Assembly: GCA_016872915.1 (NCBI GenBank)
Contig: VGYQ01000005.1
Coordinates: forward strand, 171-64,170
DNA length: 64,000 bases
Origin: Planctomycetota bacterium
GTDB taxonomy: Bacteria; Planctomycetota; Phycisphaerae; Phycisphaerales; SM1A02
Reading direction: 5' to 3'
Of this stretch, positions 2,764 through 56,893 are shown one piece after another. Below the pieces are notes generated by a model, which saw only the letters and a program-made list of their open reading frames with translations, ran no database searches and was not told where the DNA came from. The number at the start of each line of letters is the position of its first letter. The stretch's first letter is position 1. A program made the position numbers and the translations under genes.

Positions 2764-3929
2764 AGCAAGACATCCCGCTCAGCAAACCAGATCTGACCGA
2801 CGAGGATCGGCAGGCTGTCCTGACGACGCTTGCTGGCTCGCGGCTGACGATGGGGCGAGCACTGCTCGAGTTCGAGGCGGTGCTCGGCGAGGTCACGCGG
2901 CGCACATTCGCCATCGGTGTTTCGAGTGCATCGAGCGGACTCGAAATCTCCCTGCGTGCGCTTGGAGTCGGTCGTGGGGATGAGGTGCTCGTACCGGCAC
3001 TCTCCTATCCATCGAATGTCAATGCTGTGATTGCTCTTGGTGCGGTACCCGTCTTTGTCGATTGTGATCCGCGCACGCTTTGCATGAATGTGCAATGCGC
3101 AGAGCGCGCAGTGACATCGGCAACCAAGGCAGTGATCGGCATTCCGGTGCTGGGAAATCCTTGCGGGCTGCCTGAACTGATTGCGCTCTGCTCGCGGATG
3201 GAGTTGCCGATGCTTGAGCATGGTTCCGAGGGGCTCGGATCGACAATCGGCACGGACAATGTCGGTCGATTTGGGCGCCTCAGCGTGTTTGGCTTCGGGC
3301 CGAACCGCACGATTTGCGCGGGCGAAGGGGGTGCCATTGTGACGCACGATGATCGCTTGGCTGCTGCGTGCAGATCCCTCCGCAACCAAGGGCGCGATGA
3401 TCGGCGCAGCTTCCCGGATCAATCGCCTGACCTTGGCATGATCATGAGTTTTACTGGCATCGGCTCCGATGCCCGGCTTGCCGAACCGCTTGCTGCGCTC
3501 GCAGCGAGTCAGCTGCGCAGACTGGAGAGCACCCGCGCCCTGCGAGCAGAGATCGCAGCGCTCTACACGCGTGCACTTGGTGGCCATCCAGACTTGATCC
3601 TGCCGACCGTTGGTGAGGATGCGAGCGTGTGTTGGCCACTCTTCTGGGTTCGGCTCTCGGATCGCTTCGGACGTGAGGATCGAGATGCAGTCATCGGTGG
3701 CCTCCATCGGCATGACATCGGAGCTGCCAATCACTATCCGCCCGCGCATCTGCTGCCGCATGTTCGCCAGCACTTTGGCACGAACGTCGGCGACTGCCCG
3801 GCGGCAGAGTCCATCGGTGATCGCATGATCACCCTCCCGATGTTCACATCCATGAAGGAACGCGAAGTTCGGCAGGTTTGTCAAGCACTTGAAACGTTGC
3901 TCTCGCGCTCAGGCATTGATCGTGCTTGA
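2760..3929 (+). CDS. DegT/DnrJ/EryC1/StrS-family sugar aminotransferase homologue, apparently lacking the PLP lysine and aspartate
   Basis: IPLSKPDLTDED, GDEVLVPALSYPSNVNAV, PVFVDCD and GEGGAIVTHD match the family. The Schiff-base Lys column reads Arg (FGFGPNRTICAGEGG). The conserved EDAAxA Asp reads His (LEHGSEG). Confidence 0.75.
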   Translation: MKQDIPLSKPDLTDEDRQAVLTTLAGSRLTMGRALLEFEAVLGEVTRRTFAIGVSSASSGLEISLRALGVGRGDEVLVPALSYPSNVNAVIALGAVPVFVDCDPRTLCMNVQCAERAVTSATKAVIGIPVLGNPCGLPELIALCSRMELPMLEHGSEGLGSTIGTDNVGRFGRLSVFGFGPNRTICAGEGGAIVTHDDRLAAACRSLRNQGRDDRRSFPDQSPDLGMIMSFTGIGSDARLAEPLAALAASQLRRLESTRALRAEIAALYTRALGGHPDLILPTVGEDASVCWPLFWVRLSDRFGREDRDAVIGGLHRHDIGAANHYPPAHLLPHVRQHFGTNVGDCPAAESIGDRMITLPMFTSMKEREVRQVCQALETLLSRSGIDRA

Positions 3930-3954: not shown

Positions 3955-4026
3955 AAGCCACCCATGGGATTCGAACCCACGACCTATGCTTTACGAAAGC
4001 ATTGCTCTACCACTGAGCTAGGGTGG
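3955..4026 (-). tRNA. tRNA-Thr (anticodon CGU)
   Basis: The reverse complement folds as a cloverleaf: acceptor GCCACCC/GGGTGGC, D-arm GCTC-AGTGGTA-GAGC, anticodon arm ATGCT-TTCGTAA-AGCAT, T-arm GTGGG-TTCGAAT-CCCAT. CCA is not encoded. Confidence 0.9.
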
Positions 4027-4094
4027 CGATAGAAGATCGAGAGTGTAGCGCGGCAGGCAGAGGGGAGTGTCGTTGCCGACAATTCGAGAGCCGC

Positions 4095-6476
4095 TCACCC
4101 GCGCGGCTCAACGATCAATTGCACGACATCCGAAGGAGGAAGCCCAAGCGCACCGAATGCGTGCGCAGCAGCAGCTGCCACTGCCGAGTCATCGGAACGA
4201 AGCAGTGCCTTCAACGCAGCGATCTGGCTTTGCGAGAGTTGATTGCCCAATTTTCTTGCACTTGCCGCCAACGCGTCGAGCACTCTTGGCTGCATCTCTC
4301 CCGTGATGGAGAGCGAACTGGAGGCGAGTGCGCGCTGAGCAGAATCGGTCGGAATCATCGCGAGTACAGCCGCGATGCCAGCGACCTCGCTGCTTGACTC
4401 GCCCCGACCAAGTTCCCGGACGAGTGCACTCTCGGCATCACGGATATCGAAAACCGGCGATGAGGATTCCGCAATCAGACGGAGTGCAGCGAGTGCTTGC
4501 CCGCTGTACTGCTGCGTTTCCTCGACAGACAGCGCCAACCCCCCTGCAGCCCCAGCTGCCGCTTCGATGGCGCGGTTGAGCTGTTCATTGGTTGCCGATG
4601 CAAGGAATACGGCGACCCGAGGATCTCTTTCATACTGCATGGAAAGCGCAGTCGCATCCTGTCCATTGGCAATGACGACGACCGGCGCAGTGGCTGTGGG
4701 TCGAGCCAAGCGAGCTGACCGCACGACATCTTGGACGGCAGCAGTTGCACCTTGCACGACAAGCAGATCAACCGACTGACCCTGTGAGAGGCGCGTCTCC
4801 AATTCACCGATCGATCCTCCCGTCACAGCATTCGACATGCCGATCTCACCAAGGCGAGCGGCGAGCGACTGACGGTCTTCTTCGGTCGTTGCGATCACGG
4901 CACCCGTCATCGCAGCGGAGCGGAGCATTGATGTCAGCGTTGGAACAACAGAACTGTCTTGCGGGAATTGCACCTGAGGCAGCGAGCGCGCGAGCACAAG
5001 CGCCGCATCGAAACGCACACGCCGATCGGCAAACGCGAGACATTCCACCACGGGGGAACGACCCTTGGTAGGGCTGACGAGCGAGGAAGCGCCGCTGTTG
5101 AATGAGAGCACATCCAGACACGCGCGAATAAGAAGCACATCGCTCGCATCGAGCGCCATGCCGAGAGCCATTTGGGCGGCAATCGATCCGGCTGCAGTGG
5201 CAAGCAGTTCTGGAGCGAACCGAGGCTGCAGCAATTCCGCCCGCCGCACATCCTCGTCACCACTTGCATCCATGTTCATCAGGCGCATCAGCGCTGATCG
5301 CCGGAGGTCTGCTGCGATGAAGACCGCCAACGCCATCTGCGAATTGGGGTCGATCCGGAGGGCATTTCGCGACAGCAGCACCGCCATGGTCTCGCAGTAC
5401 ACCGGCGTTGGGACACTTGTGCCGACAAGTCCGCCCGAGGGATCGTGGGACCAAATCACATTGCCCGAGTCTGACGGATAGGGGATAAGCGTTGGAACCT
5501 GATCAAAGAATCGCCGCGCAAGCGCGGTGTATTGACTCGCCGCATCTTGACTCGTCCCACCAAGACGCGCGTACGCACGGAGCGCAGCGCCTCGCACATC
5601 AGCTGCCGTGTCGGCCTTGCTCGCGAGATCGAGCAGGAAGGGCTGAGCGCTTGGATAACCGATCTCTCCCAGAATCTCGCAGATCTTGCGCTGCGTCGAC
5701 GGGTCAACGGCCGGCAGCGCGGCACACAATGGGTCGACTGCAAGCCGTTTCAGATCCACCAGCACCGCCCGAGCGGCGTTCGAAGTCTTGGCATCGCCTC
5801 CGTTGGCGAGCGCCTTCAAGAGCGCCGGAACGGCAAATGGCCCCGCAGCAACAAGCCGCGAGCGGGCCATCATCTGTTGTCGCATCGATCCGTTGAGTGC
5901 AGCGACCGATTCCTCGATCCGAAGGGCGTTTCGGCTCGTCGCGCGCGCGCCGTTTCGTAGGCGCGTCTCAAACTCCACCACCAACGGACCCACCCCTTCC
6001 ATCGCCCGACCGCGCGTCATGGATCGTTCTACCTTTTCGGTCATCCCCCGCTCGTCGACAAGGCGGCTGATCTGCTCGTCGGTGATGCCCGATTCAAAGA
6101 GCTCTTGGAACGCCCCCGTAGCCATCGTCGCGTTTCCGATGAGGAGATAGTGCAGTGCCATGTCGAGCGCATGTGCCTGCTGCGCAGTGGCCCCTTCGGC
6201 AGGATCAGAAAGCGCCGGGGCCTCACCGCTGGCGCTTTGCAAAGAGGCATCATCGCCATCGGCTCCACTTGGGCTGTTGGCCTCACCCGACGCTGCCTCC
6301 CCACCACTGCTCTCCTCTGCCATCGGCTCTTCCGCAGGAACATCCGTTGGCTCCGCAGGCTCGCCGGCGGGATCAGGCGGCGTTGGATCATCCGCCCATG
6401 AGGGTGACACCAGACCGACATGAAGCAGGGCGAGGAGAGAGGCGGTCAGGAGGGAACTGCGGGTGAGGTCGTGCAC
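4095..6476 (-). CDS. Large secreted protein with HEAT/armadillo-like helical repeats
   Basis: GTG start. Signal peptide MHDLTRSSLLTASLLALLHVGLVSPSWA, then an acidic Pro/Glu/Ser-rich linker, then repeats of the type LLKALANGGDAKTSNAARAVLVDL and ICEILGEIGYPSAQPFLLDLA. Confidence 0.65.
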   Translation of the reverse strand: MHDLTRSSLLTASLLALLHVGLVSPSWADDPTPPDPAGEPAEPTDVPAEEPMAEESSGGEAASGEANSPSGADGDDASLQSASGEAPALSDPAEGATAQQAHALDMALHYLLIGNATMATGAFQELFESGITDEQISRLVDERGMTEKVERSMTRGRAMEGVGPLVVEFETRLRNGARATSRNALRIEESVAALNGSMRQQMMARSRLVAAGPFAVPALLKALANGGDAKTSNAARAVLVDLKRLAVDPLCAALPAVDPSTQRKICEILGEIGYPSAQPFLLDLASKADTAADVRGAALRAYARLGGTSQDAASQYTALARRFFDQVPTLIPYPSDSGNVIWSHDPSGGLVGTSVPTPVYCETMAVLLSRNALRIDPNSQMALAVFIAADLRRSALMRLMNMDASGDEDVRRAELLQPRFAPELLATAAGSIAAQMALGMALDASDVLLIRACLDVLSFNSGASSLVSPTKGRSPVVECLAFADRRVRFDAALVLARSLPQVQFPQDSSVVPTLTSMLRSAAMTGAVIATTEEDRQSLAARLGEIGMSNAVTGGSIGELETRLSQGQSVDLLVVQGATAAVQDVVRSARLARPTATAPVVVIANGQDATALSMQYERDPRVAVFLASATNEQLNRAIEAAAGAAGGLALSVEETQQYSGQALAALRLIAESSSPVFDIRDAESALVRELGRGESSSEVAGIAAVLAMIPTDSAQRALASSSLSITGEMQPRVLDALAASARKLGNQLSQSQIAALKALLRSDDSAVAAAAAHAFGALGLPPSDVVQLIVEPRG

Positions 6477-6688
6477 GATCGAAAAGTCCTTGAGGGGGCA
6501 GTTCGTTGGGTCTCGTGATGAAACGGTTCAAACGAGCGAGTGGCCCAAGAACGACCCGCGTTGGGGAAGCCATGAAAATAGCCGAAAGAGCGGGTTCCCG
6601 CAACGAACAACGGCGGCGACCAATGCGAGTACTCTCTCCCGCGTGCTTGACCCTCGGCACTCGTGAGCCGAGGCGTGCGCTTGCGTCG

Positions 6689-6860
6689 GCTGGCCCGATT
6701 CATGCGCGCGAGGGAAGGCGGTGAGATTCCGCCGCGGACGCGCCGCCGTGACGGGTGAGACCGATGAGGTCTGATGCCCGAGCCAGAGAAGCCACTGGGA
6801 CCGCATGTGCGGAATCCGGGAAGGCAGGCTCGGGTGCCCGAAGTCGGAAGACCTGCCTGC
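6689..6860 (+). promoter_or_regulatory. Cobalamin (B12) riboswitch
   Basis: Conserved cores appear in canonical order. AGGGAAGGCGGTGAGATTCCGCCGCGGACGCGCCGCCGTGACGGG at 6711-6755. AGAAGCCACTGGGA with B12 box GCCACTG at 6791-6797. GGGAAGGC at 6818-6825. AGTCGGAAGACCTGCC at 6842-6857. The element ends 69 nt upstream of the ATG at 6929. Boundaries are approximate. Confidence 0.8.
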
Positions 6861-6928
6861 AGTGTTGTGCCGCCCCCTCGCGATTTGTTCAGGGGTCACG
6901 GCGCGAGGCCAGTTGTTTTATTCACCCC

Positions 6929-7861
6929 ATGCCGACTTTTGCGCAGGACCGCGCAGTGATCGCGTGCTTCCGAGCAGTGGCTCTCATCTGTGCATTCGTA
7001 GATGTTTCTCCCGCTCGATCAAGCGACTTCGCTTCATCCGTCATTTCCTATGTTCCTGGAACGAATCCAGCGAATGGTTTCACCAATCCGTATGCGGCCC
7101 TTGGCGCTCCAGAGCGTTTCACTGGCGAGAACATTTCGCCGGGAGCTGTCACGCCATTTGTTCCTGCGTTTGGGACATCCGAGATTGTGTCGATTGGTGC
7201 GGGTGGAAGTCTCACGCTGGCATTCCATCCACCCATCCTCGATGATGCGAACAACCCCTTTGGCATCGATCTCATTGTCTTTGGAAACTCATTCTTCACT
7301 GACGGCGCATGGCCGACTGGTTCGTGTGCAGGACTGGCAGCAGATGGTGGAAGCATTCAAGTCAGTTCGGATGGCATGCAGTGGATCACGGTGTCGGGTG
7401 TTGTTGCAGATGGTCTCTTCCCCACGATGGGGTTCACCGATGTCGGTCCGTACTCACCAACCGCCGGCAGCGTTGTGACAAATCCCCACCTCCCCATCGA
7501 TCCATCGCTCACGCTGGCGGATCTGCAGGGCAGCTCCTACGAACAGATTTTGGATGCCTACGCGGGCAGTGCAGGCGGCGCAGGCATTGATCTTGCGAGC
7601 GTCGGGATCACGAGCGCAGTGGCCGTACGCATTGTGGTACCGAGCGGCTTTCACCCCAATGTCGAGATTGATGCTGTCGCGCGCGTTCTCCCCCGCGCGC
7701 GGTCCGCCGACATCGACTCCGACGGGGTCGTGGGTGGCAGCGATTTGTCGATCCTGCTCTCCGCATTTGGCAGCGGTTCGTCATCTGCAGATCTCAATGG
7801 CGATGGCACCGTCGGTGGAAGCGACTTGTCTCTTCTGCTGGCCGCATGGGGTTCCGTATGA
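6929..7861 (+). CDS. Secreted protein of unknown function with C-terminal double dockerin-like (EF-hand-type) repeat
   Basis: ATG at 6929 gives the signal peptide MPTFAQDRAVIACFRAVALICAFVDVSPA; the ORF-track start at 6755 lies inside the riboswitch. C-terminus DIDSDGVVGGSDLSILLSAFG...DLNGDGTVGGSDLSLLLAAWG. First gene after the B12 riboswitch. Confidence 0.7.
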   Translation: MPTFAQDRAVIACFRAVALICAFVDVSPARSSDFASSVISYVPGTNPANGFTNPYAALGAPERFTGENISPGAVTPFVPAFGTSEIVSIGAGGSLTLAFHPPILDDANNPFGIDLIVFGNSFFTDGAWPTGSCAGLAADGGSIQVSSDGMQWITVSGVVADGLFPTMGFTDVGPYSPTAGSVVTNPHLPIDPSLTLADLQGSSYEQILDAYAGSAGGAGIDLASVGITSAVAVRIVVPSGFHPNVEIDAVARVLPRARSADIDSDGVVGGSDLSILLSAFGSGSSSADLNGDGTVGGSDLSLLLAAWGSV

Positions 7862-8652
7862 GCCGGCGCGCATTCACGCTCGTGGAGTCGCTTGTCACGA
7901 TCGCCACGCTGGCTTTGCTCGCTTCACTGCTCCTCCCAGTGGTCGGCAGCGTTCGTGAACGTGGGCGAGGCGTGGAGTGCACAGTTCGCATGCGTCAGTA
8001 TGCGGTGGCCGCGATTGCCTACTCCGGTATCTACCGTGGCACATTCCCTGCTGCCATCCTCCACGAGCAAACGGCATCTGGTGTGCGCACCGTAGCGTGG
8101 GACTACGCACACGGTGCAGGTGCGCTGCAACCCGGACCGCTCAGCTTGTTCACCGATAGCCCCTTTGCCATGCGGCAGTGCCCATGCTGCAGACCCCCGA
8201 CTGCCACGGAAGACGCTCCATGTACCGGCTTCAATTACAACACGTCATTCATCGGAGCCGAAGGCGCGTATCCATCGGTCGGGGCGGATGGAGTGTTCCG
8301 CAGCGGCTGGGGGAGCGCACGCCTTGGTGTGCCCTCGAGCGCACATGTTCGGCCATCGCAGACCGCTCTCTTCGGTGACGGAGGCTGGAGCGGTGGAACG
8401 AACAAGTTCATGCGCGCGCCCGAGGCGCTTGTGGAGATGGATCTCGGAGTGGTCTATGCGGGCGCGCAAGCGTTTCGCCATCAGAGCTGCACCAATGTGG
8501 CCTGGCTCGATGGACACACCTCAGCCGTGTGTTCGCCATGTGAGGGCGAGCACATGTTGACCGCATCGGGTGCACCGCTGCTCGTGCAGCCGCTCGGTTG
8601 GCCGCGCAATGGTTTTCTGAGCCAGAACAACGCTGCCTACGATCCGCGGTGA
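7858..8652 (+). CDS. Prepilin-type N-terminal cleavage/methylation domain protein, HX9DG (DUF1559) family
   Basis: N-terminal pseudopilin motif MSRRAFTLVESLVTIATLALLASLLLP. C-terminal H-X9-DG motif HQSCTNVAWLDG. ATGA start/stop overlap with the upstream gene (7858-7861). Confidence 0.85.
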   Translation: MSRRAFTLVESLVTIATLALLASLLLPVVGSVRERGRGVECTVRMRQYAVAAIAYSGIYRGTFPAAILHEQTASGVRTVAWDYAHGAGALQPGPLSLFTDSPFAMRQCPCCRPPTATEDAPCTGFNYNTSFIGAEGAYPSVGADGVFRSGWGSARLGVPSSAHVRPSQTALFGDGGWSGGTNKFMRAPEALVEMDLGVVYAGAQAFRHQSCTNVAWLDGHTSAVCSPCEGEHMLTASGAPLLVQPLGWPRNGFLSQNNAAYDPR

Positions 8653-8656
8653 AACG

Positions 8657-8911
8657 ATGGGTGACTCCCTCGACTCTTGCACTTCTCACTCGATACGCAT
8701 CGATCGCTGTGTCTGTGTCGATGTGACCTTTGAACGCATGCGTGTGTTCGCCGACAAGGAGGGTGTGGCTGATGTCGAGCCATTGCGCCGCGCTTTCGGC
8801 TGTGCCGAGAGCTGCGGTCTCTGCGAGCCATACATCGAGCAGATGCTCGAGACTCGAACGGTGATCTTTTCTTCGCCGCTTCCGCCACGCATACCGCAGC
8901 GCGGCAGCTGA
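8657..8911 (+). CDS. BFD-like [2Fe-2S]-binding domain protein
   Basis: Cys pattern RCVCVDVTF...FGCAESCGLCEPYIEQML (C-x-C...C-x2-C) is typical of bacterioferritin-associated-ferredoxin-like domains. Starts 4 nt after the previous stop. Confidence 0.7.
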   Translation: MGDSLDSCTSHSIRIDRCVCVDVTFERMRVFADKEGVADVEPLRRAFGCAESCGLCEPYIEQMLETRTVIFSSPLPPRIPQRGS

Positions 8912-8960
8912 CTGCCTCAGCGGTCCCGCCGCTCGATTCACTCTGTCGGAACAACGGCAC

Positions 8961-10769
8961 TCAGCGACGGCCGAATCGACGCTCAATATCCGCGAGCGGA
9001 ATGTGTACAGAGGTTGGTCGACCATGAGGACAGTGCGTCCCACGATCCGTGATCGCGCCATCCGCGATCAACCGCGCTGCCTCCTCGCGGCTCAGTCGAT
9101 CACCCGCCTTGACCGCAGCCTTGCAGGCCATCATGTCGAGTACATCTGCAAGCGCCGCTTCCTGGGCATGACCGATCTGCCCAGACTCCACTCCGCGGGC
9201 GAGCGATTCGTCCGCGAGAATCTGGGCCATGAAGACGGCCGCATCCACGTGGCGCTCCAGCAGAAACACAGGGAAGGCGTGAACGGCGATCGACCGCGGT
9301 CCGGCAGGGTTCGCCTCTATGCCGAGCCGCTGAAGGAGCGGCGTGAGTGATTCAAGTGTGGCGAGCGCCTCAGGCGGAACTGCAACTGGGACAGGAACCA
9401 GGAAGCGCTGCTGCATGAGATGGCCTGCGGCGATCCGCCGTCGAAGGTCGGCGAACATCACACGCTCATGCAGCGCATGCTGATCGGTGATGATGATGCC
9501 ATCCTCGCTGGCGTGCACAATCCAGGTTTCGTCCACGAGCAGCACATCCACGCACCGTGTTGGTGCCTGCAACAGTTGCTCAAAAGGTGGCGAATCCGCC
9601 GCTCTCGAAGCGCTTCGAGGAGACCACGCCTTCTCGCGACTGGCAGTGCTGGCAGTGAACATCGGTTTGCCAACGGCAGACGGAGCAGTTGGTCTGTCGA
9701 TGGGTTGAGTCGGCTCGGAGACCACATGAGCTCTGGACTTTTCGAGCAGAGTGCCGCCGTGGGTCGTGCCGACATGAGCCTCCAGCGCATCTGCAACGGC
9801 GTGGTGAACCATTCGGTGCAACTGCCCGGCATTTCGCCAGCGCACTTCCGTCTTTTGCGGATGGACATTGACATCCACGCCGTGTGGATCGATTTCAATG
9901 AACAGCACGAATGTGGGCTGCAGGTTCGGCGCAGCGCGTCCGCGGTATGCCTCACGGACGGCATGCTGGAGCGAGCGGTCGGTGATCGGACGGCCATTCA
10001 CAAAGATGCGCTGTGTGCGGCTGACCGACCGCAGCTTTTCAGGACGGCATGCAAGTCCGACCACTCGGGCGTTGATGCCATCGAACACAGCCTCCCCCGC
10101 GATGGGCATCGGATTTGACCCGAGCACATCTGGGAAGACGGCAAGCGCTCGCGCGAAGAGATCGGCCATCGGTTCGAGAGAAAACACCTCACGCCCCGCA
10201 CTTTCGAGGGTGAAGCCAACGGAGGGATGCGCGAGCGCCGCATTTGTCACCACTTCCGTGACACGTGCTGCCTCTGCAGGATCACTCTTGAGAAACTTTC
10301 GGCGGGCTGGGACATTTCCGAATAGTCCAAGCACTTCGATCGCCGTACCTGCGGCGCCCGCCGCTGGACGCACAGGTTCAAGATGGCCAAAGCGGCTCTC
10401 AAGCACCGCAGCATCGGCAGCTTCGCGCCGCCTCGATCGAATGCGGACATGTGAGACTCCGGCAATGGCTGCAAGGGCTTCTCCTCGGAACCCAAACGTT
10501 CGAAGCGCGTCCAAGTCACGCGTGGCAGCGATCTTGCTTGTGGCGTGGGCTGCGACGGCAAGTGGCAGTTCGGACGGGTCCATACCGCACCCATCGTCGA
10601 CCACCTCGATCGATTCCCGCCCTCCCCCTCGAACTCGAACCGTCAGATGAGTGGCCCCTGCATCGAGGGCGTTCTCGATCAGCTCCTTCACGACACTTGC
10701 CGGTCGTTCCACCACCTCCCCGGCAGCAATTTGCTGAACAATCTCTGCGGGAAGTATGCGAATGGGCAT
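8961..10769 (-). CDS. mutL: DNA mismatch repair protein MutL
   Basis: N-terminal GHKL ATPase signature MPIRILPAEIVQQIAAGEVVERPASVVKELIENALDAGA, DDGCGM, FGFRGEALAAI. C-terminal dimerisation region. Confidence 0.92.
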   Translation of the reverse strand: MPIRILPAEIVQQIAAGEVVERPASVVKELIENALDAGATHLTVRVRGGGRESIEVVDDGCGMDPSELPLAVAAHATSKIAATRDLDALRTFGFRGEALAAIAGVSHVRIRSRRREAADAAVLESRFGHLEPVRPAAGAAGTAIEVLGLFGNVPARRKFLKSDPAEAARVTEVVTNAALAHPSVGFTLESAGREVFSLEPMADLFARALAVFPDVLGSNPMPIAGEAVFDGINARVVGLACRPEKLRSVSRTQRIFVNGRPITDRSLQHAVREAYRGRAAPNLQPTFVLFIEIDPHGVDVNVHPQKTEVRWRNAGQLHRMVHHAVADALEAHVGTTHGGTLLEKSRAHVVSEPTQPIDRPTAPSAVGKPMFTASTASREKAWSPRSASRAADSPPFEQLLQAPTRCVDVLLVDETWIVHASEDGIIITDQHALHERVMFADLRRRIAAGHLMQQRFLVPVPVAVPPEALATLESLTPLLQRLGIEANPAGPRSIAVHAFPVFLLERHVDAAVFMAQILADESLARGVESGQIGHAQEAALADVLDMMACKAAVKAGDRLSREEAARLIADGAITDRGTHCPHGRPTSVHIPLADIERRFGRR

Positions 10770-22470: not shown

Positions 22471-22582
22471 ATCGAGCACGAGAACCCGTGCGGTGCCATT
22501 GGAGCCCCACAATCTTCTTCTATCTGCGGAAACTCCTTGCTTTTGCTTTGACTGCGGCATCATCTCGGTGTCTACTCCGAGG

Positions 22583-24889
22583 ATGCGACCCGCTCACCCG
22601 GCTCGTTTCCTGGCAGCAGCAACGGTCGTTCTTCTGGCCGGTCCGGTTCTCGCACAACAGCCGAACCGCATCCCGCAGCCACCCATCCGTTCTTTCGTGC
22701 GTCTGGAGTCGCCTCTTCGTGAGGTCCCTGCGCAAGAGCTTGGCGCACGTGGCGTAGTGCCCGGACATTTGCAAGGCATCGTTGCGCTGCTTGAAGTGGA
22801 CGAGAAGAACTGGCAGACACTCTCTGCGGCGGAGGATGCGCTGTTGACTGGTCTTCCGATTGCGCCCGGACAGACTGTGGATGCCCTGGTGCACCGCCGA
22901 AGTCCGTTCGAAGGCACGCAGGTGGTTTCGGCATCGCTCAATGCCAAGGGGGAGATCGTGGATGTTCCGCTCGCGTTGCCAGCGCTCACCTGTTTCGGTG
23001 GTTCGCTCGTCGGCGATCCATCCTCGTGGGTCATGATCGCCAGACATGAGAGCTTTCTGATTGGATTCGTGATCACTGCGGAAGGACGCTGGATCATCTC
23101 AAGCGGCGCGGCCGACCAGAATGGACCGATCGTCGCATTTCGCCACAGCGCGCTTCCGCCAGGAACGCTGCGAACTCGAGACTGGAGCTGCGAGACCCTG
23201 CTGCCCCCCGACGATCGCGGCAACGCAGGTGGTGCAGGGCGTGGGGATGGTGGCGGCGATGAGGGCAGCATCGCAGGATCTGGCACGTGTCGGCAATCGC
23301 GGATCGCCGTTGAAACCGACCATGAGTTCCTTCTGCTCTTCGGTGGCAATCAGGGCGCAGCAGCGGCTTACGTCGCGACGCTGTTCAGCGCACTGACTGA
23401 CATCTATTCGCGCGATGTTGGACTGCGCCCAACCCCCTGCCTGATTCGACTTTGGCCAACGGCAAACGACCCGTGGGATGGAGCATCCACCAATGCGCAG
23501 CTCTCCCAGTTCCGATCTGTTTGGGAAGCGACGCCTCCAGCCGTGCAGCGCAACTCCGCCACCTTCCTCTCGGGTCGTGGACTCGGTGGCGGCGTCGCAT
23601 GGCTCAATGCAGGCTGTGGCAGTTTCGCGTACTCCTTGTCCGCAAATCTCGGCGGTTGGTTCCCCTATCCGCTGGTCGACAACAGCTGGGACAACTGGGA
23701 CATCATGGTTGTGGCCCACGAACTCGGTCACAACTACGGCGCGCCGCACACGCACAGCTACACCCCCCCCGCGGACGGCTGCGGATCGGATCCCCAGGAC
23801 TGCACCGCTGCAAACAACGATGAGGGCACCATCATGAGCTACTGCCACATCTGCGATGGGGGCATGTCGAATGTGGACATGCGTTTCCATCCGATGAGCA
23901 TCGGCTCGATCACTTCGTATATCGGCGGAGGCGCATGCAACTTCTCGTCGTCCGTGCAGCCACCCGCAGCGCTTCCGGACTACGCCACGTGCTTGACAGG
24001 AGCGGTCATCGACATCGATGTGCTCGCAAACGACCTCGCACTCAACTGCGATCCGATCACTTCCATATCGGTCGCGCAGCCCGGCGGCGGCGCATCCGCA
24101 GTCGTCGTACCAGGCGCAGGACCCAATGGACGCAGCATCGTGCGGTTCACTGCTCCAGGCGGCACCACCACCTCACTCACCTTCGCATACACCGTCGTGG
24201 AAGCAAGCGGACTGAGCAACTCCGCCAATATCACGGTCGACGTGGCCGCCTTACGCTACCCAGAGAACCCCGGCAACTCCGCACCGGGGGTGATCGTCAG
24301 CTACTACCAACTCGTGGCACCACAAGTCCTTCCTGATTTCACCACACTCACACAGTATGCAGGTGGCATCCTGAACGACATCAACTTTGCCAGCACGGGG
24401 GGAGCGTTTGCGACAAGTGGACGCGCCCAAGAGGTGGGCGCCGTCTTCCAAGGTTGGATCAACATTCCGACATCCGGGTTCTGGACTCTCTTCACGAACT
24501 CGGACGATGGTTCCCGACTCCTGATTGGAGACACGGTCGTCGTGAACAACGACGGCCTGCATGCGATGCTCGAGCGTTCCGGCACGATCGCACTTGCTGC
24601 CGGGAAACACGCCATTCGAGTCGAGTTCTTCGAGTACAGCGGTGGTGCAGGCCTCATCGCATCATGGCAGGGTCCGAGTGTGGCGAAGGCGGTGGTCCCA
24701 GCGTCCGCATGGTCGCGTGGCGGCACCTACAACTGGGCGGATATTGATCGCAGCGGAACGGTCAACGGCACCGACCTCTCGCTGCTGCTCGCCGCATGGG
24801 GCACGTTCAACATCCCCGCGGACATCAATCAAGACGGCCTCGTGTCGGGCGCGGATCTCTCGGCGCTCCTGGCGGCTTGGACCAACTGA
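22583..24889 (+). CDS. Secreted multidomain zinc metalloprotease (reprolysin/metzincin-like) with PA14-like domain and dockerin-like tail
   Basis: Signal peptide MRPAHPARFLAAATVVLLAGPVLAQQ. Zinc site VVAHELGHNYGAPH (HExxHxxGxxH). PA14-like GWINIPTSGFWTLFTNSDDGSRLLIGD...FFEYSGGAGL. C-terminus DIDRSGTVNGTDLSLLLAAWG...DINQDGLVSGADLSALLAAW. Confidence 0.8.
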   Translation: MRPAHPARFLAAATVVLLAGPVLAQQPNRIPQPPIRSFVRLESPLREVPAQELGARGVVPGHLQGIVALLEVDEKNWQTLSAAEDALLTGLPIAPGQTVDALVHRRSPFEGTQVVSASLNAKGEIVDVPLALPALTCFGGSLVGDPSSWVMIARHESFLIGFVITAEGRWIISSGAADQNGPIVAFRHSALPPGTLRTRDWSCETLLPPDDRGNAGGAGRGDGGGDEGSIAGSGTCRQSRIAVETDHEFLLLFGGNQGAAAAYVATLFSALTDIYSRDVGLRPTPCLIRLWPTANDPWDGASTNAQLSQFRSVWEATPPAVQRNSATFLSGRGLGGGVAWLNAGCGSFAYSLSANLGGWFPYPLVDNSWDNWDIMVVAHELGHNYGAPHTHSYTPPADGCGSDPQDCTAANNDEGTIMSYCHICDGGMSNVDMRFHPMSIGSITSYIGGGACNFSSSVQPPAALPDYATCLTGAVIDIDVLANDLALNCDPITSISVAQPGGGASAVVVPGAGPNGRSIVRFTAPGGTTTSLTFAYTVVEASGLSNSANITVDVAALRYPENPGNSAPGVIVSYYQLVAPQVLPDFTTLTQYAGGILNDINFASTGGAFATSGRAQEVGAVFQGWINIPTSGFWTLFTNSDDGSRLLIGDTVVVNNDGLHAMLERSGTIALAAGKHAIRVEFFEYSGGAGLIASWQGPSVAKAVVPASAWSRGGTYNWADIDRSGTVNGTDLSLLLAAWGTFNIPADINQDGLVSGADLSALLAAWTN

Positions 24890-54646: not shown

Positions 54647-56893
54647 TCAGCCCCACGACGCAAGCAACAGCGTCAAATCCGGGCCGCCAACCGTTCCATC
54701 TGAATTGATATCCGCGTTGCCGCTCGATCCCCACTGCGACAGCAGCACCGCAAGATCGATGCCATCCACTGACCCACTGTTGTCAAAGTCCGCGGGCGCG
54801 AAGAGGCAGCCCAGGCGAACAAGTTGCACGTCGTCGACAGCCGCCTCGACAAGCGATCCCGCACCGAGATCCTGCGCCAGGAATCGCACGGCGACCGGCG
54901 ATCCGATCGGCACGACCCCATTCAGCGGGAGTCGCATTTCACGCCACGCCGTTTGGCTCGATGAAATTGTTGCGATGGTCGTCCACACGCCGCCACTCCC
55001 CTGAACTTGCACGGGCATCTCATCCTGATTCGGACTCGCGCCGAGATTGTTTGAGTACCAGTACCAGAAGCGAAGTTCCATCGCCGCAGTCATCGTTCCA
55101 AGCGAAGGAGACTGCAGCGTGGTGGTACCACCGTCCACATCGGCTGCGCCTGCTCCGCCACCCACGACACCTTGCCCCGTGAAGGCACACTGCGTGCCGG
55201 GCGCAGGTGAGTGATCATCTTCGGCCTGCGCGCTGGTGGCGATCGGATCACCCTGCGTCCACACGCCACCTGTCGCGGTATCGCCTGAAATACCAAATGA
55301 CCAGCCGGGCGCCGATTCGAAATCCACACTGGTCAGGACGACTTCGGAAGCCGCCACCGACTGAAAAGGCTGCTCGACTCCATTCGATGGCCACACCGCA
55401 TCGACTGGGATGCCCACTGCAAGAAGATGCCACGACACGCTCGTTCCACACGGGAAAGCAGGGAGCGAGGCTGCAAACAGATTGTTGCCGAGCGATGACA
55501 TCACGACATTGTTCCACGCGCCAGAGCCAACGCGCCAGCGAAGGACCCGTGCGGAGACGGATCCGGCAAGCGATGGGCGAATCTTGGCGGTGATAGTCGT
55601 GGGCGTTCCGGCAACGATGGTCGGTGGCGCAACCTGCGGCACGATGGCGGCAGCTCGTGTGGTGCGGTCAAGAAACACCAGTGTGGCAGCGAAGTTCTCT
55701 CGTGCGCACGGCAGGATTTCGCTCGGTGGCATCACGAAACCGTAGCCGCCCGTGTCCCGCACTTCGGTGGTCCATGCGAGTGCCGCGCGACTTCCATAGA
55801 CCCAGTCCACCGATCCACCACTGGCGAGATAGAGCGTGGTGCCAGCGGGACCGACGGTGTAGTTCAGACCACCGCTTTGGGTGATCGCGCTGCTCATATC
55901 GGATCCGATGGACTGAAAGACATCGGCGTCTGCCGAGAAATCCGTGGTGTACGCCCACGGCGAGAGCACCAACTGCGAATACGCGTGGATATCAATGTTG
56001 GAGACGATGTTGGGTCGGGCTTCGAAGAACGTGCGCATCGCCTGTGTCTCCGGCTCACTGAATGCGTCGGGGCCGCGGTAGGTTTCACTCGAGGGATTGC
56101 TGCTCGCACCCGCCCCACCCCACTGGTAGCCCCAGTTTCGGTTGGGGTCGACGCCGAAAGTGCCATCACCATTGTTGCGGCGATTCTTGCGCCACAATCG
56201 GTTGGCCGTGTCCGCCCAGGTGAACACATACCCGTCCACGTTCACAACGGGGATGACCAGCACTTCCGTGCGCGCGAGAATCTGCGCCACGACCGGATCG
56301 CTGTCCGCAGTCTCCACGAGCCGATCCGCCATGTACATGCATGTCATGGTCGCGCCCCATTCGCGTGCATGTTGAGTGCCGTTGAGAACCACCGCAGGAG
56401 CGACGGTGCCAACGGGAAGTGCACTGATGCGGATGCCGCGGATGACTCGCCCTTCGATGGAGGTTCCGACGGTGAACAGGGATGCTCGGTCAGGACGAAG
56501 CGCCACGAGCGCCTCCAGGCGCGCCTCGATGGCCGCCAAGTTCTTGAAGTCACTGAACCACGCATCGTCGGCGACGCCGCCCTCTTGAGGCGGGCGAGAA
56601 AGCCGATCATGCTCTGCCCGCACAAGCGACTCGACATCCTCGATAAAAACGCACCACTTCAGGTTCGTTCGTCCGAGCGCCTCGCGTTGTTCGGGAGTCA
56701 CCAGATACTCCGCGCATCCGCCATAAATCCCGTGGGACCACATGTCGTCGCTGAGCGACTCCATGGTGCGCACATCGCGGATCGAATCGAGCCACACCCG
56801 CACGACCGAGTCAGCACAAACAGCCGGGGTGCAGAGGAACCCACACAGCAGACCTGCGGCCATCTCGCGTGCGCGGCGTTTCGCCATGTGCAT
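54647..56893 (-). CDS. Secreted M14 zinc carboxypeptidase with C-terminal beta-rich domains and dockerin-like tail
   Basis: Signal peptide MAAGLLCGFLCTPAVCA. M14 motifs NGTQHAREWG, PVVNVDGY, DIHAYSQLVLSPW. C-terminus DFDNSGSVDGIDLAVLLSQWG...DINSDGTVGGPDLTLLLASWG. Confidence 0.82.
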   Translation of the reverse strand: MHMAKRRAREMAAGLLCGFLCTPAVCADSVVRVWLDSIRDVRTMESLSDDMWSHGIYGGCAEYLVTPEQREALGRTNLKWCVFIEDVESLVRAEHDRLSRPPQEGGVADDAWFSDFKNLAAIEARLEALVALRPDRASLFTVGTSIEGRVIRGIRISALPVGTVAPAVVLNGTQHAREWGATMTCMYMADRLVETADSDPVVAQILARTEVLVIPVVNVDGYVFTWADTANRLWRKNRRNNGDGTFGVDPNRNWGYQWGGAGASSNPSSETYRGPDAFSEPETQAMRTFFEARPNIVSNIDIHAYSQLVLSPWAYTTDFSADADVFQSIGSDMSSAITQSGGLNYTVGPAGTTLYLASGGSVDWVYGSRAALAWTTEVRDTGGYGFVMPPSEILPCARENFAATLVFLDRTTRAAAIVPQVAPPTIVAGTPTTITAKIRPSLAGSVSARVLRWRVGSGAWNNVVMSSLGNNLFAASLPAFPCGTSVSWHLLAVGIPVDAVWPSNGVEQPFQSVAASEVVLTSVDFESAPGWSFGISGDTATGGVWTQGDPIATSAQAEDDHSPAPGTQCAFTGQGVVGGGAGAADVDGGTTTLQSPSLGTMTAAMELRFWYWYSNNLGASPNQDEMPVQVQGSGGVWTTIATISSSQTAWREMRLPLNGVVPIGSPVAVRFLAQDLGAGSLVEAAVDDVQLVRLGCLFAPADFDNSGSVDGIDLAVLLSQWGSSGNADINSDGTVGGPDLTLLLASWG

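Follow-up and report, generated by a model that had tools for sequence, protein, structure and literature searches.

A cobalamin riboswitch precedes a planctomycetal operon for envelope proteins with a probable role in corrinoid acquisition

What does a cobalamin (vitamin B12) riboswitch control when the genes behind it belong to no known B12 regulon? The question is raised by a locus in a 64,000-nucleotide stretch of contig VGYQ01000005.1 (assembly GCA_016872915.1, forward strand, positions 171 to 64,170; hereafter the window) from a Planctomycetota bacterium of the Phycisphaerales. An earlier note on this DNA had read a cobalamin riboswitch in front of three tightly packed open reading frames (ORF1 to ORF3), placed them outside the known B12 regulons, and suggested a B12-repressed system for capturing corrinoids at the cell surface. 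Riboswitch-controlled B12 acquisition is well known, and to our knowledge all outer-envelope B12 components described so far are TonB-dependent BtuB channels and the Bacteroidota lipoproteins BtuG, BtuH and BtuJ. Here, we found that the riboswitch is an ordinary member of its family, that it accompanies ORF1 and ORF2 across close and distant relatives, and that in a few of these the genes of a BtuFCD-type importer lie beside the cassette. We consider it probable that the operon encodes envelope proteins that aid corrinoid acquisition when B12 is scarce.

The riboswitch and its linkage to the cassette

A scan of the whole window against Rfam gave one riboswitch match, to RF00174 of clan CL00101 (55.3 bits, E = 5.1e-11, against a gathering score of 31.5 bits), with an alignment spanning the full length of the model (positions 1-189). 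The match was unchanged when 6600-6960 was rescanned (E = 2.9e-13), which bears out the riboswitch call of the earlier note. The features of the aptamer and of the operon behind it are as follows.

6674 to 6874, + strand: cobalamin riboswitch aptamer (RF00174), including the B12 box; 55.3 bits, covarying pairs
from 6711, + strand: aptamer core motif AGGGAAGGC
6748 to 6755, + strand: aptamer core motif GTGACGGG
6791 to 6797, + strand: B12 box GCCACTG
6818 to 6825, + strand: aptamer core motif GGGAAGGC
6842 to 6857, + strand: aptamer core motif AGTCGGAAGACCTGCC
6929 to 7861, + strand: ORF1, 310 aa
7858 to 8652, + strand: ORF2, 264 aa, its start overlapping the ORF1 stop (ATGA)
8657 to 8911, + strand: ORF3, 84 aa

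All these motifs were verified in the sequence, and the positions that the earlier note had given for them, for the three ORFs and for the ATGA coupling were correct throughout. The B12 box and the core motifs stand in canonical order, and GGGAA, GGUG and AGACCUGCC align to the RF00174 consensus. In an alignment of 16 operon-linked aptamers, compensatory changes on both sides were observed in 18 of the 29 consensus pairs. The window aptamer thus shares with RF00174 the full-model match, the motif order and the covarying helices, and departs from it in the P2 region, which fits poorly and has low posterior probabilities. The window leader bears a bona fide RF00174 aptamer, an ordinary member of the family; as in btuB-type leaders, the operon behind it encodes extracytoplasmic proteins.

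We then asked whether the riboswitch is linked to these genes in related genomes, as the earlier note had proposed to check. The close set comprised 80 genome loci with ORF1 relatives of 44-85% identity, all from metagenome-assembled genomes of Planctomycetota or Phycisphaerales and mostly from lakes, and its aptamers were detected with an nhmmer model built from Rfam-confirmed aptamers. ORF2 followed ORF1 in 79 of the 80 loci. An aptamer on the + strand stood upstream of ORF1-ORF2 in 75 of the 80, that is, in 75 of the 77 testable loci, since three of the negatives carried no upstream DNA; the Rfam gathering score was reached in 12 of the 13 and 12 of the 16 close loci scanned. ORF3 was present in about 49 of the 80 and is restricted to the freshwater clade of the window. 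The three-gene operon of the earlier note therefore holds for the window, but the conserved core consists of two genes, ORF1 and ORF2.

The distant set comprised 80 loci from a metagenome scan seeded with a subfamily that is 30-38% identical to ORF1 and also belongs to Planctomycetota by NCBI names. An ORF1-like gene with an adjacent DUF1559 gene, 29-38% identical to ORF2, was kept in 71 of these loci, a few of them with inverted order, and ORF3 was absent. The aptamer was found in 48 of the 49 loci that had at least 1.5 kb of upstream DNA, and Rfam confirmed it in all 16 loci scanned (54-129 bits). The genomic context also varied. Loci L057 and L064 have ClpB upstream and DksA, LspA and TruB downstream, score 82 and 80 bits for RF00174, and show the order riboswitch, an extra small PEP-CTERM gene, ORF1, ORF2, ORF3; in L161-L164 dnaG/rpoD and an FAA-hydrolase gene precede the cassette, whose genes overlap at their start and stop codons. 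Taken together, the covariation, the several contexts and the retention in the distant subfamily indicate that the linkage is under selection and not due to chance. Two of the outcomes that the earlier note had named as refuting, no significant RF00174 match and no linkage in related genomes, were contradicted by these results.

A third conserved cassette gene, which we call X177, separates the riboswitch from the ORF1-like gene in 51 distant loci and in L057 and L064 and is absent from the window (for example L092 3444-3977, L057 4223-4855 and L107 2217-3116; alignment A6). Its product, of about 165-300 aa, carries a signal peptide, a PEP-CTERM tail and the motif GGGExWWHYW...DGWxYG, and gave no Pfam or PDB match. 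An assignment to DUF4430, a transcobalamin-like domain, was supported neither by Pfam nor by the PDB profile search. X177 is a candidate for a second B12 binder.

A tie to corrinoid import came from L092 and L102, in which riboswitch, X177, ORF1-like gene, DUF1559 gene, Peripla_BP_2, ABC_tran and FecCD follow one another on one strand with short or overlapping junctions, behind riboswitches of 123 and 129 bits, respectively. In L119, a BtuF/D/C-like operon converges on the cassette and has an RF00174-like aptamer of its own at 6813-6944 (- strand), so that two B12 riboswitches lie within about 6 kb. The presence of Peripla_BP_2, ABC_tran and FecCD genes in the same operon ties the cassette to corrinoid import. 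The cassette thus shares an operon with BtuFCD-type importer genes in L092 and L102 and adjoins them in L119; it differs from such an importer in that neither the window nor most other loci contain these genes, and the operon of the window encodes accessory proteins only. Accordingly, the statement of the earlier note that the genes lie outside known B12 regulons is right for the window, whose genes are of another kind, but does not extend to relatives that attach the cassette to BtuFCD. No btuB-like gene or TonB-dependent BtuB partner was present in any locus examined. Large ORFs downstream of the cassette in distant loci, considered as TonB receptors or secretins, proved to be a sugar kinase/NTP-transferase, a GGDEF-HD regulator and unknowns.

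The proteins of the cassette

ORF1 is divided into three parts, all on the + strand.

aa 1 to 29: signal-peptide-like N-terminus, a hydrophobic N-terminal helix
aa 30 to 256 (7016 to 7696): beta-rich domain of about 225 aa, without a Pfam or NCBIfam match
aa 260 to 307 (7706 to 7849): two-repeat dockerin tail, found by hidden Markov models, PDB profile search and Foldseek

In Pfam and NCBIfam, the dockerin alone was matched, at 21.6 bits in Pfam (cut-off 22.9) and 29.0 bits with NF041540 (cut-off 29). The tail consists of two tandem Ca-binding repeats that match dockerin models, and it recovered the dockerin chain 2y3n_B both in a profile search of the PDB (E = 1.1e-6) and in Foldseek (TMt 0.80, root-mean-square deviation (rmsd) 1.1 Å). 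Two further window ORFs, at 22493-24889 (+ strand) and 54647-56893 (- strand), end in dockerin tails (24737-24880 and 54650-54793) that are 60-63% identical to that of ORF1, which suggests that the organism uses this tail as a general surface-anchoring tag.

The N-terminal domain of ORF1 resisted assignment by sequence. Profiles A1, A2, A4 and A5 gave dockerins and EF-hands only among solved structures; for a Pfam or NCBIfam identity, a weak LIC_13355 lipoprotein match recurred below threshold in distant relatives and nothing else did; and the DUF4465 (BtuJ) model was matched neither by ORF1 nor by its distant relatives (E up to 0.1-1). The family itself is large, with at least 893 homologues of ORF1 and 1604 representative clusters for the N-domain alone (E ≤ 1e-3), and elsewhere the domain is joined to PEP-CTERM tails, dockerins or PQQ_2 beta-propellers. 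In the AlphaFold2 model of ORF1 (predicted local distance difference test score, pLDDT, 78.7), the sole Foldseek match below 1e-3 was 8blw_B, the Bacteroides B12-capture protein BtuG1 (E = 1.2e-6, probability 1.0), with a template modelling (TM) score of 0.32 on the query and an rmsd of 13.7 Å. We take this match as a hint at B12 binding, not as family membership. Lower-ranked matches were carbohydrate-binding jelly rolls of the CBM32/discoidin type (E = 8e-3 to 0.1).

In five proteins (P0256, P0270, P0307, P0370 and P0376), an ORF1-like domain and a PQQ_2-type beta-propeller were observed in one polypeptide. The arrangement recalls BtuG1, in which a propeller is joined to a BtuH domain, with a different propeller family. 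P0388 (771 aa) combines an ORF1-like domain, a dockerin, an internal N_methyl motif and DUF1559; this is probably a merged gene call over the ORF1-ORF2 junction and not a true fusion.

ORF2 has the features of a prepilin-like protein of the HX9DG/DUF1559 family. A processing motif, RRA|FTLVE, is present at 7858-7938, and the H-x9-DG motif HQSCTNVAWLDG lies at aa 208-219 (8479-8514). Among 31 ORF2 homologues, E10 (the Glu at +5), H208, D218 and G219 were invariant, as were the cysteines. Glu at +5 is tied to filament assembly in established pilin biology. The scores stayed below thresholds for N_methyl (18.8, cut-off 21.2), TIGR02532 (15.8, just under its cut-off) and DUF1559 (PF07596; 16.4 bits, gathering threshold 23.3); precomputed PF07596 matches exist in many ORF2 homologues, and the L092 orthologue reached 26.3 bits. 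Close homologues are annotated as H-X9-DG or DUF1559, in some sources as "type II secretion system protein". The subfamily is compact, with about 900 detectable members. The equivalog model of the major pseudopilin GspG, TIGR01710, scored 13.3 bits against a cut-off of 88.85 and covered the N-terminal 35 residues only; weak N-terminal matches to ComGE and ComGF were also seen. In the AlphaFold2 model (pLDDT 80.9), an N-terminal helix of 50 residues is followed by a globular head, for which Foldseek gave no relative in the PDB at E < 1. ORF2 therefore shares with the HX9DG/DUF1559 proteins (PF07596, TIGR04294) of Planctomycetota and other members of the Planctomycetes-Verrucomicrobia-Chlamydiae group the cleavage/methylation motif, the long N-terminal helix and the invariant H-x9-DG, whereas it falls below the Pfam cut-off and its subfamily occurs in a specific pairing with ORF1-like genes downstream of a B12 riboswitch. 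In the literature searched, nothing on the function of the HX9DG/DUF1559 family was found, and DUF1559 is named in only four papers.

ORF3 has no signal peptide and carries Cys18, Cys20, Cys53 and Cys56, a CxC...CxxC pattern that was retained in 48 of 49 orthologues. Its score against Fer2_BFD (PF04324) was 22.3 bits, below the gathering threshold of 26. The earlier note had called ORF1 a signal-peptide protein with a dockerin-like tail, ORF2 an HX9DG/DUF1559 pseudopilin-like protein and ORF3 a BFD-like [2Fe-2S] protein; these domain calls are right, but the model scores are weak and mostly below the cut-offs.

The ATG starts at 6929 and 7858 are backed by the N-termini of homologues over longer, mechanically delimited ORFs. 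The cassette is bracketed by a divergent HEAT-repeat gene (4095-6476, - strand) and a convergent mutL (8961-10769, - strand), which makes it a self-contained operon. The HEAT-repeat protein (793 aa), a tRNA (3956-4027, - strand) and mutL are syntenic with the cassette in nearly all 80 genome loci of the close set, so the chromosomal neighbourhood is unusually stable within the clade. The window neighbours are housekeeping genes, with no BtuFCD or other B12 genes among them. In several distant loci, a ComF-like gene (double zinc ribbon plus phosphoribosyltransferase) was observed after the cassette (L124 6001-6777, L127 6005-6790, L143 6003-6986, L161 13088-13861 and L164 9722-10453), directly in some loci and after a few intervening genes in L161-L163. 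Since ComF proteins work together with the type IV-filament machines of DNA uptake, this neighbour could be relevant, or it could be a coincidence.

The leader between aptamer and ORF1

How the aptamer might act on the operon was examined in the segment that follows it, which contains these elements.

6865 to 6906, + strand: two-tier hairpin that begins within the 3′ end of the aptamer and runs on beyond it (minimum free energy fold)
6876 to 6882, + strand: CCTCGCG, 5′ arm of the terminator proposed in the earlier note
6892 to 6896, + strand: GGGGT
6902 to 6908, + strand: CGCGAGG, 3′ arm of the same proposed terminator
6913 to 6922, + strand: T-rich tract TTGTTTTATT, its putative tail
ATG at 6929, + strand: start codon, directly preceded by ACCCC

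The sequence elements among these were verified. The terminator-type platform proposed in the earlier note, the stem CCTCGCG/CGCGAGG followed by TTGTTTTATT, did not stand as a conserved mechanism: neither the T-run nor the CGCGAGG arm is kept in the closest relatives L001-L004 or in other clades, the perfect pairing of the stem is also lost in the closest relatives, and the terminator scan was negative. A different structure recurs. The two-tier hairpin has an outer stem UUGUGCCG/CGGCGCGA, an inner stem CCCC/GGGG and a loop that holds CUCGCGA; its architecture was found in many orthologous leaders, its CGCGA loop is kept across distant lineages, and its outer stem covaries (for example GCGCUGU/ACAGUGC versus GCGCCGU/ACGGUGC). 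Judged from these leader sequences, the hairpin is probably part of the expression platform. A pseudoknot of the loop CUCGCG with CGCGAG (6707-6712, just 5′ of GGGAA) was rejected, as it showed no covariation and, in L057 for instance, the loop is conserved despite a different 5′ partner.

Other leaders suggest that the output differs between clades. In other clades, a Shine-Dalgarno-like GGAG is preceded by CUCC, suggesting translational control there. In the leader of L092, a relative of low GC content, a promoter-like site is followed by the aptamer and then by a 14-bp terminator with T7, a textbook layout that fits an OFF switch. Between this terminator and the first gene, the long L092 leader also contains tandem units of about 16 nt (GTGGGAAAGTGAGAAG) at 3130-3205. 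The window differs from such RF00174 leaders in having no recognisable terminator or helix sequestering a Shine-Dalgarno site, and its output mechanism would probably be translational or Rho-dependent.

A proposed function and its alternatives

The closest known systems include BtuG, BtuH and BtuJ (DUF4465), surface B12-capture lipoproteins encoded in riboswitch-controlled btuB-btuFCD loci of Bacteroides (PMC6143338, PMC8941943, PMC10404256, bioRxiv 10.1101/2025.08.21.671476); in BtuG1, a beta-propeller is joined to a B12-binding domain of the BtuH type (PMC10404256, PMC8941943). As in these systems, accessory, beta-rich proteins that are probably surface-exposed are encoded after a B12 riboswitch, with btuFCD-like genes in the operon in L092 and L102 only; BtuG1 is the best PDB match of the ORF1 model; and ORF1-like domains, like BtuH domains (PMC8941943), are also fused to beta-propellers. 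In contrast, ORF1 has no sequence similarity to them, no DUF4465 match and no lipobox, a dockerin or PEP-CTERM tail replaces the lipid anchor, the partner is a pilin-like protein, and no TonB-dependent BtuB accompanies it. The propellers also differ, being PQQ_2 in ORF1-like proteins and PF16819 beside DUF4465 genes (DUF4465 paper); the DUF4465 family of B12 binders includes a Phycisphaerae member (same paper). In our literature search, cobalamin riboswitches were nowhere tied to DUF1559, prepilins, PEP-CTERM proteins or dockerins, and no paper on the cassette was found.

We propose that the cassette is most likely a B12-repressed envelope module for corrinoid capture. When B12 is plentiful, the ligand-bound aptamer would switch the operon off, in L092 through the strong intrinsic terminator and in the window more likely through the conserved aptamer-adjacent hairpin, acting on translation initiation or on Rho-dependent termination. 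When B12 is scarce, Sec would export ORF1, and the dockerin tail (PEP-CTERM in relatives) would keep ORF1 on display outside the cell, where it may bind corrinoid. ORF2, once cut by prepilin peptidase, would be incorporated in a type IV-filament or pseudopilus-like structure that crosses the periplasm, or would sit at its tip; there it would either present ORF1 or pass the captured corrinoid inward to an ABC (ATP-binding cassette) importer encoded elsewhere in the genome. ORF3 may be a cytoplasmic [2Fe-2S] accessory specific to the clade, with a possible role in reducing imported cob(III)alamin. The capture system suggested in the earlier note gains strong if indirect support from the BtuFCD-type genes in L092 and L102 and from the BtuG1 match, while binding and repression themselves are still inferred.

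Several observations weigh against this reading. Two close loci, L035 and L074 (4300-5010 in each), keep ORF1-ORF2 and the flanking synteny and have lost the aptamer, without a weak remnant even when the nhmmer filters were off; L035 retains platform-like sequence just ahead of the ATG, and the two look like lineage-specific losses of B12 control. As synteny extends to the HEAT-repeat gene and mutL on either side, much of the linkage within the close clade could be inherited synteny. Adjacency to BtuFCD was observed in only 3 of about 160 loci, and the window contains no gene for an importer or an outer-membrane channel, tblastn having returned only a generic ABC ATPase at 28% identity. As for the switch, no terminator-like site was detected in 6400-9100, and the T-run of the window is missing from its closest relatives and from other clades. 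The BtuG1 match is geometrically weak (TM score and rmsd given above) and is given for the chain without naming the BtuG1 domain aligned, BtuH2 (7BIZ) and DUF4465 structures were absent among the 50 Foldseek matches listed for ORF1, and profiles A2, A4 and A5 retrieved no BtuG or BtuH chain from the PDB at E up to 10 and showed no sequence similarity of the ORF1 domain to any PDB chain.

A bolder version, which we regard as rather unlikely, is that Planctomycetota import B12 over the outer membrane by a dedicated type IV-filament (pseudopilus) device that replaces TonB-dependent BtuB: the HX9DG pilin ORF2 would carry or dock the B12-binding ORF1 (with X177 in other lineages) and reel the vitamin to the periplasm for a BtuFCD-type importer. 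Planctomycetal crateriform-structure fibres bind dextran and may mediate uptake (PMC5394234), and these substrate-binding fibres make a pilin-based route plausible, also for the capture module proposed above. With them and with the ComG competence pseudopilus, the cassette shares a pilin-like subunit encoded together with a putative extracellular ligand binder, and with ComG also the weak ComGE/ComGF matches of ORF2 and the ComF-like gene after the cassette in several relatives. It differs in lacking an assembly ATPase, a platform protein and a secretin; the cargo would be a vitamin and not DNA or polysaccharide, and a link between HX9DG proteins and those fibres is putative. If this version were true, the greatly enlarged HX9DG/DUF1559 family would amount to a set of "fishing" pilins, each specific to a substrate, and would be the molecular basis of the substrate-binding fibres of crateriform structures.

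Other explanations assign ORF2 a different task. As a dedicated type II secretion pseudopilin or adaptor, it could export ORF1 (and X177 in relatives) over the outer membrane while B12 enters by an unrelated route, with B12 capture still the purpose of the cassette. All pseudopilin hallmarks are present in ORF2, its cargo proteins must somehow reach the surface, translation of the genes is coupled, and the name given to some homologues points the same way; yet both the GspG and the GspH equivalog model give scores far under the cut-offs, the globular domain of about 200 aa with its invariant Cys and HX9DG is unlike core type II secretion pseudopilins, and the cassette contains no other gene of that system. 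We hold this export role to be unlikely. The helix of ORF2 might instead be a mere inner-membrane anchor for a periplasmic ligand-binding domain, a tethered BtuF-like shuttle with ORF1 as its periplasmic or outer-membrane partner. The Pfam name of DUF1559, "SBP_bac_10", and the position of the cassette directly upstream of the ABC importer in L092 and L102 speak for such a shuttle, which nevertheless appears very unlikely given that both loci already have a canonical Peripla_BP_2 protein beside the ORF2-like one, that Glu at +5 is invariant, and that Foldseek found no likeness of ORF2 to solute-binding proteins.

It is also conceivable that the cassette answers B12 limitation without taking up B12, as an adhesin and pilus directed to B12-producing partners or as a scavenger of cobalt or corrinoid precursors. 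Elsewhere among bacteria, RF00174 also regulates cobalt transporters, tails of the dockerin and PEP-CTERM kinds are characteristic of surface proteins with adhesive roles, and the lower-ranked structural matches of ORF1 are jelly rolls; the operon fusion with BtuFCD-type genes, however, points to corrinoid import, and the top structural match of ORF1 is a B12 binder and not a lectin, leaving little probability for a response of this kind. The BtuFCD fusion, the invariant Glu at +5 and the BtuG1 match make these three explanations less likely. Finally, the adjacency of riboswitch and genes might be inherited synteny without function, or the aptamer a decaying relic, as the syntenic flanks across the close clade and the two loci without an aptamer would allow. 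We give this next to no credence, since the linkage persists in three or more unrelated contexts and at protein identities as low as 30%, the aptamer helices covary, and relatives score up to 129 bits.

Overall, the riboswitch itself is ordinary and what is new is the cassette behind it, probably a form of corrinoid acquisition under riboswitch control that draws on families not characterised before. Since the ligand of the riboswitch is known, three families can be marked as B12-responsive across the whole phylum, namely the ORF1 domain, a DUF1559/HX9DG subfamily and the X177 PEP-CTERM protein, and one member of the very large HX9DG family can be given a function that is concrete and open to testing. 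Its small ligand and known regulator make the cassette a tractable case for whether planctomycetal pilin-like proteins act in uptake, and it suggests how the abundant Planctomycetota of fresh waters and sediments may compete for a scarce vitamin.

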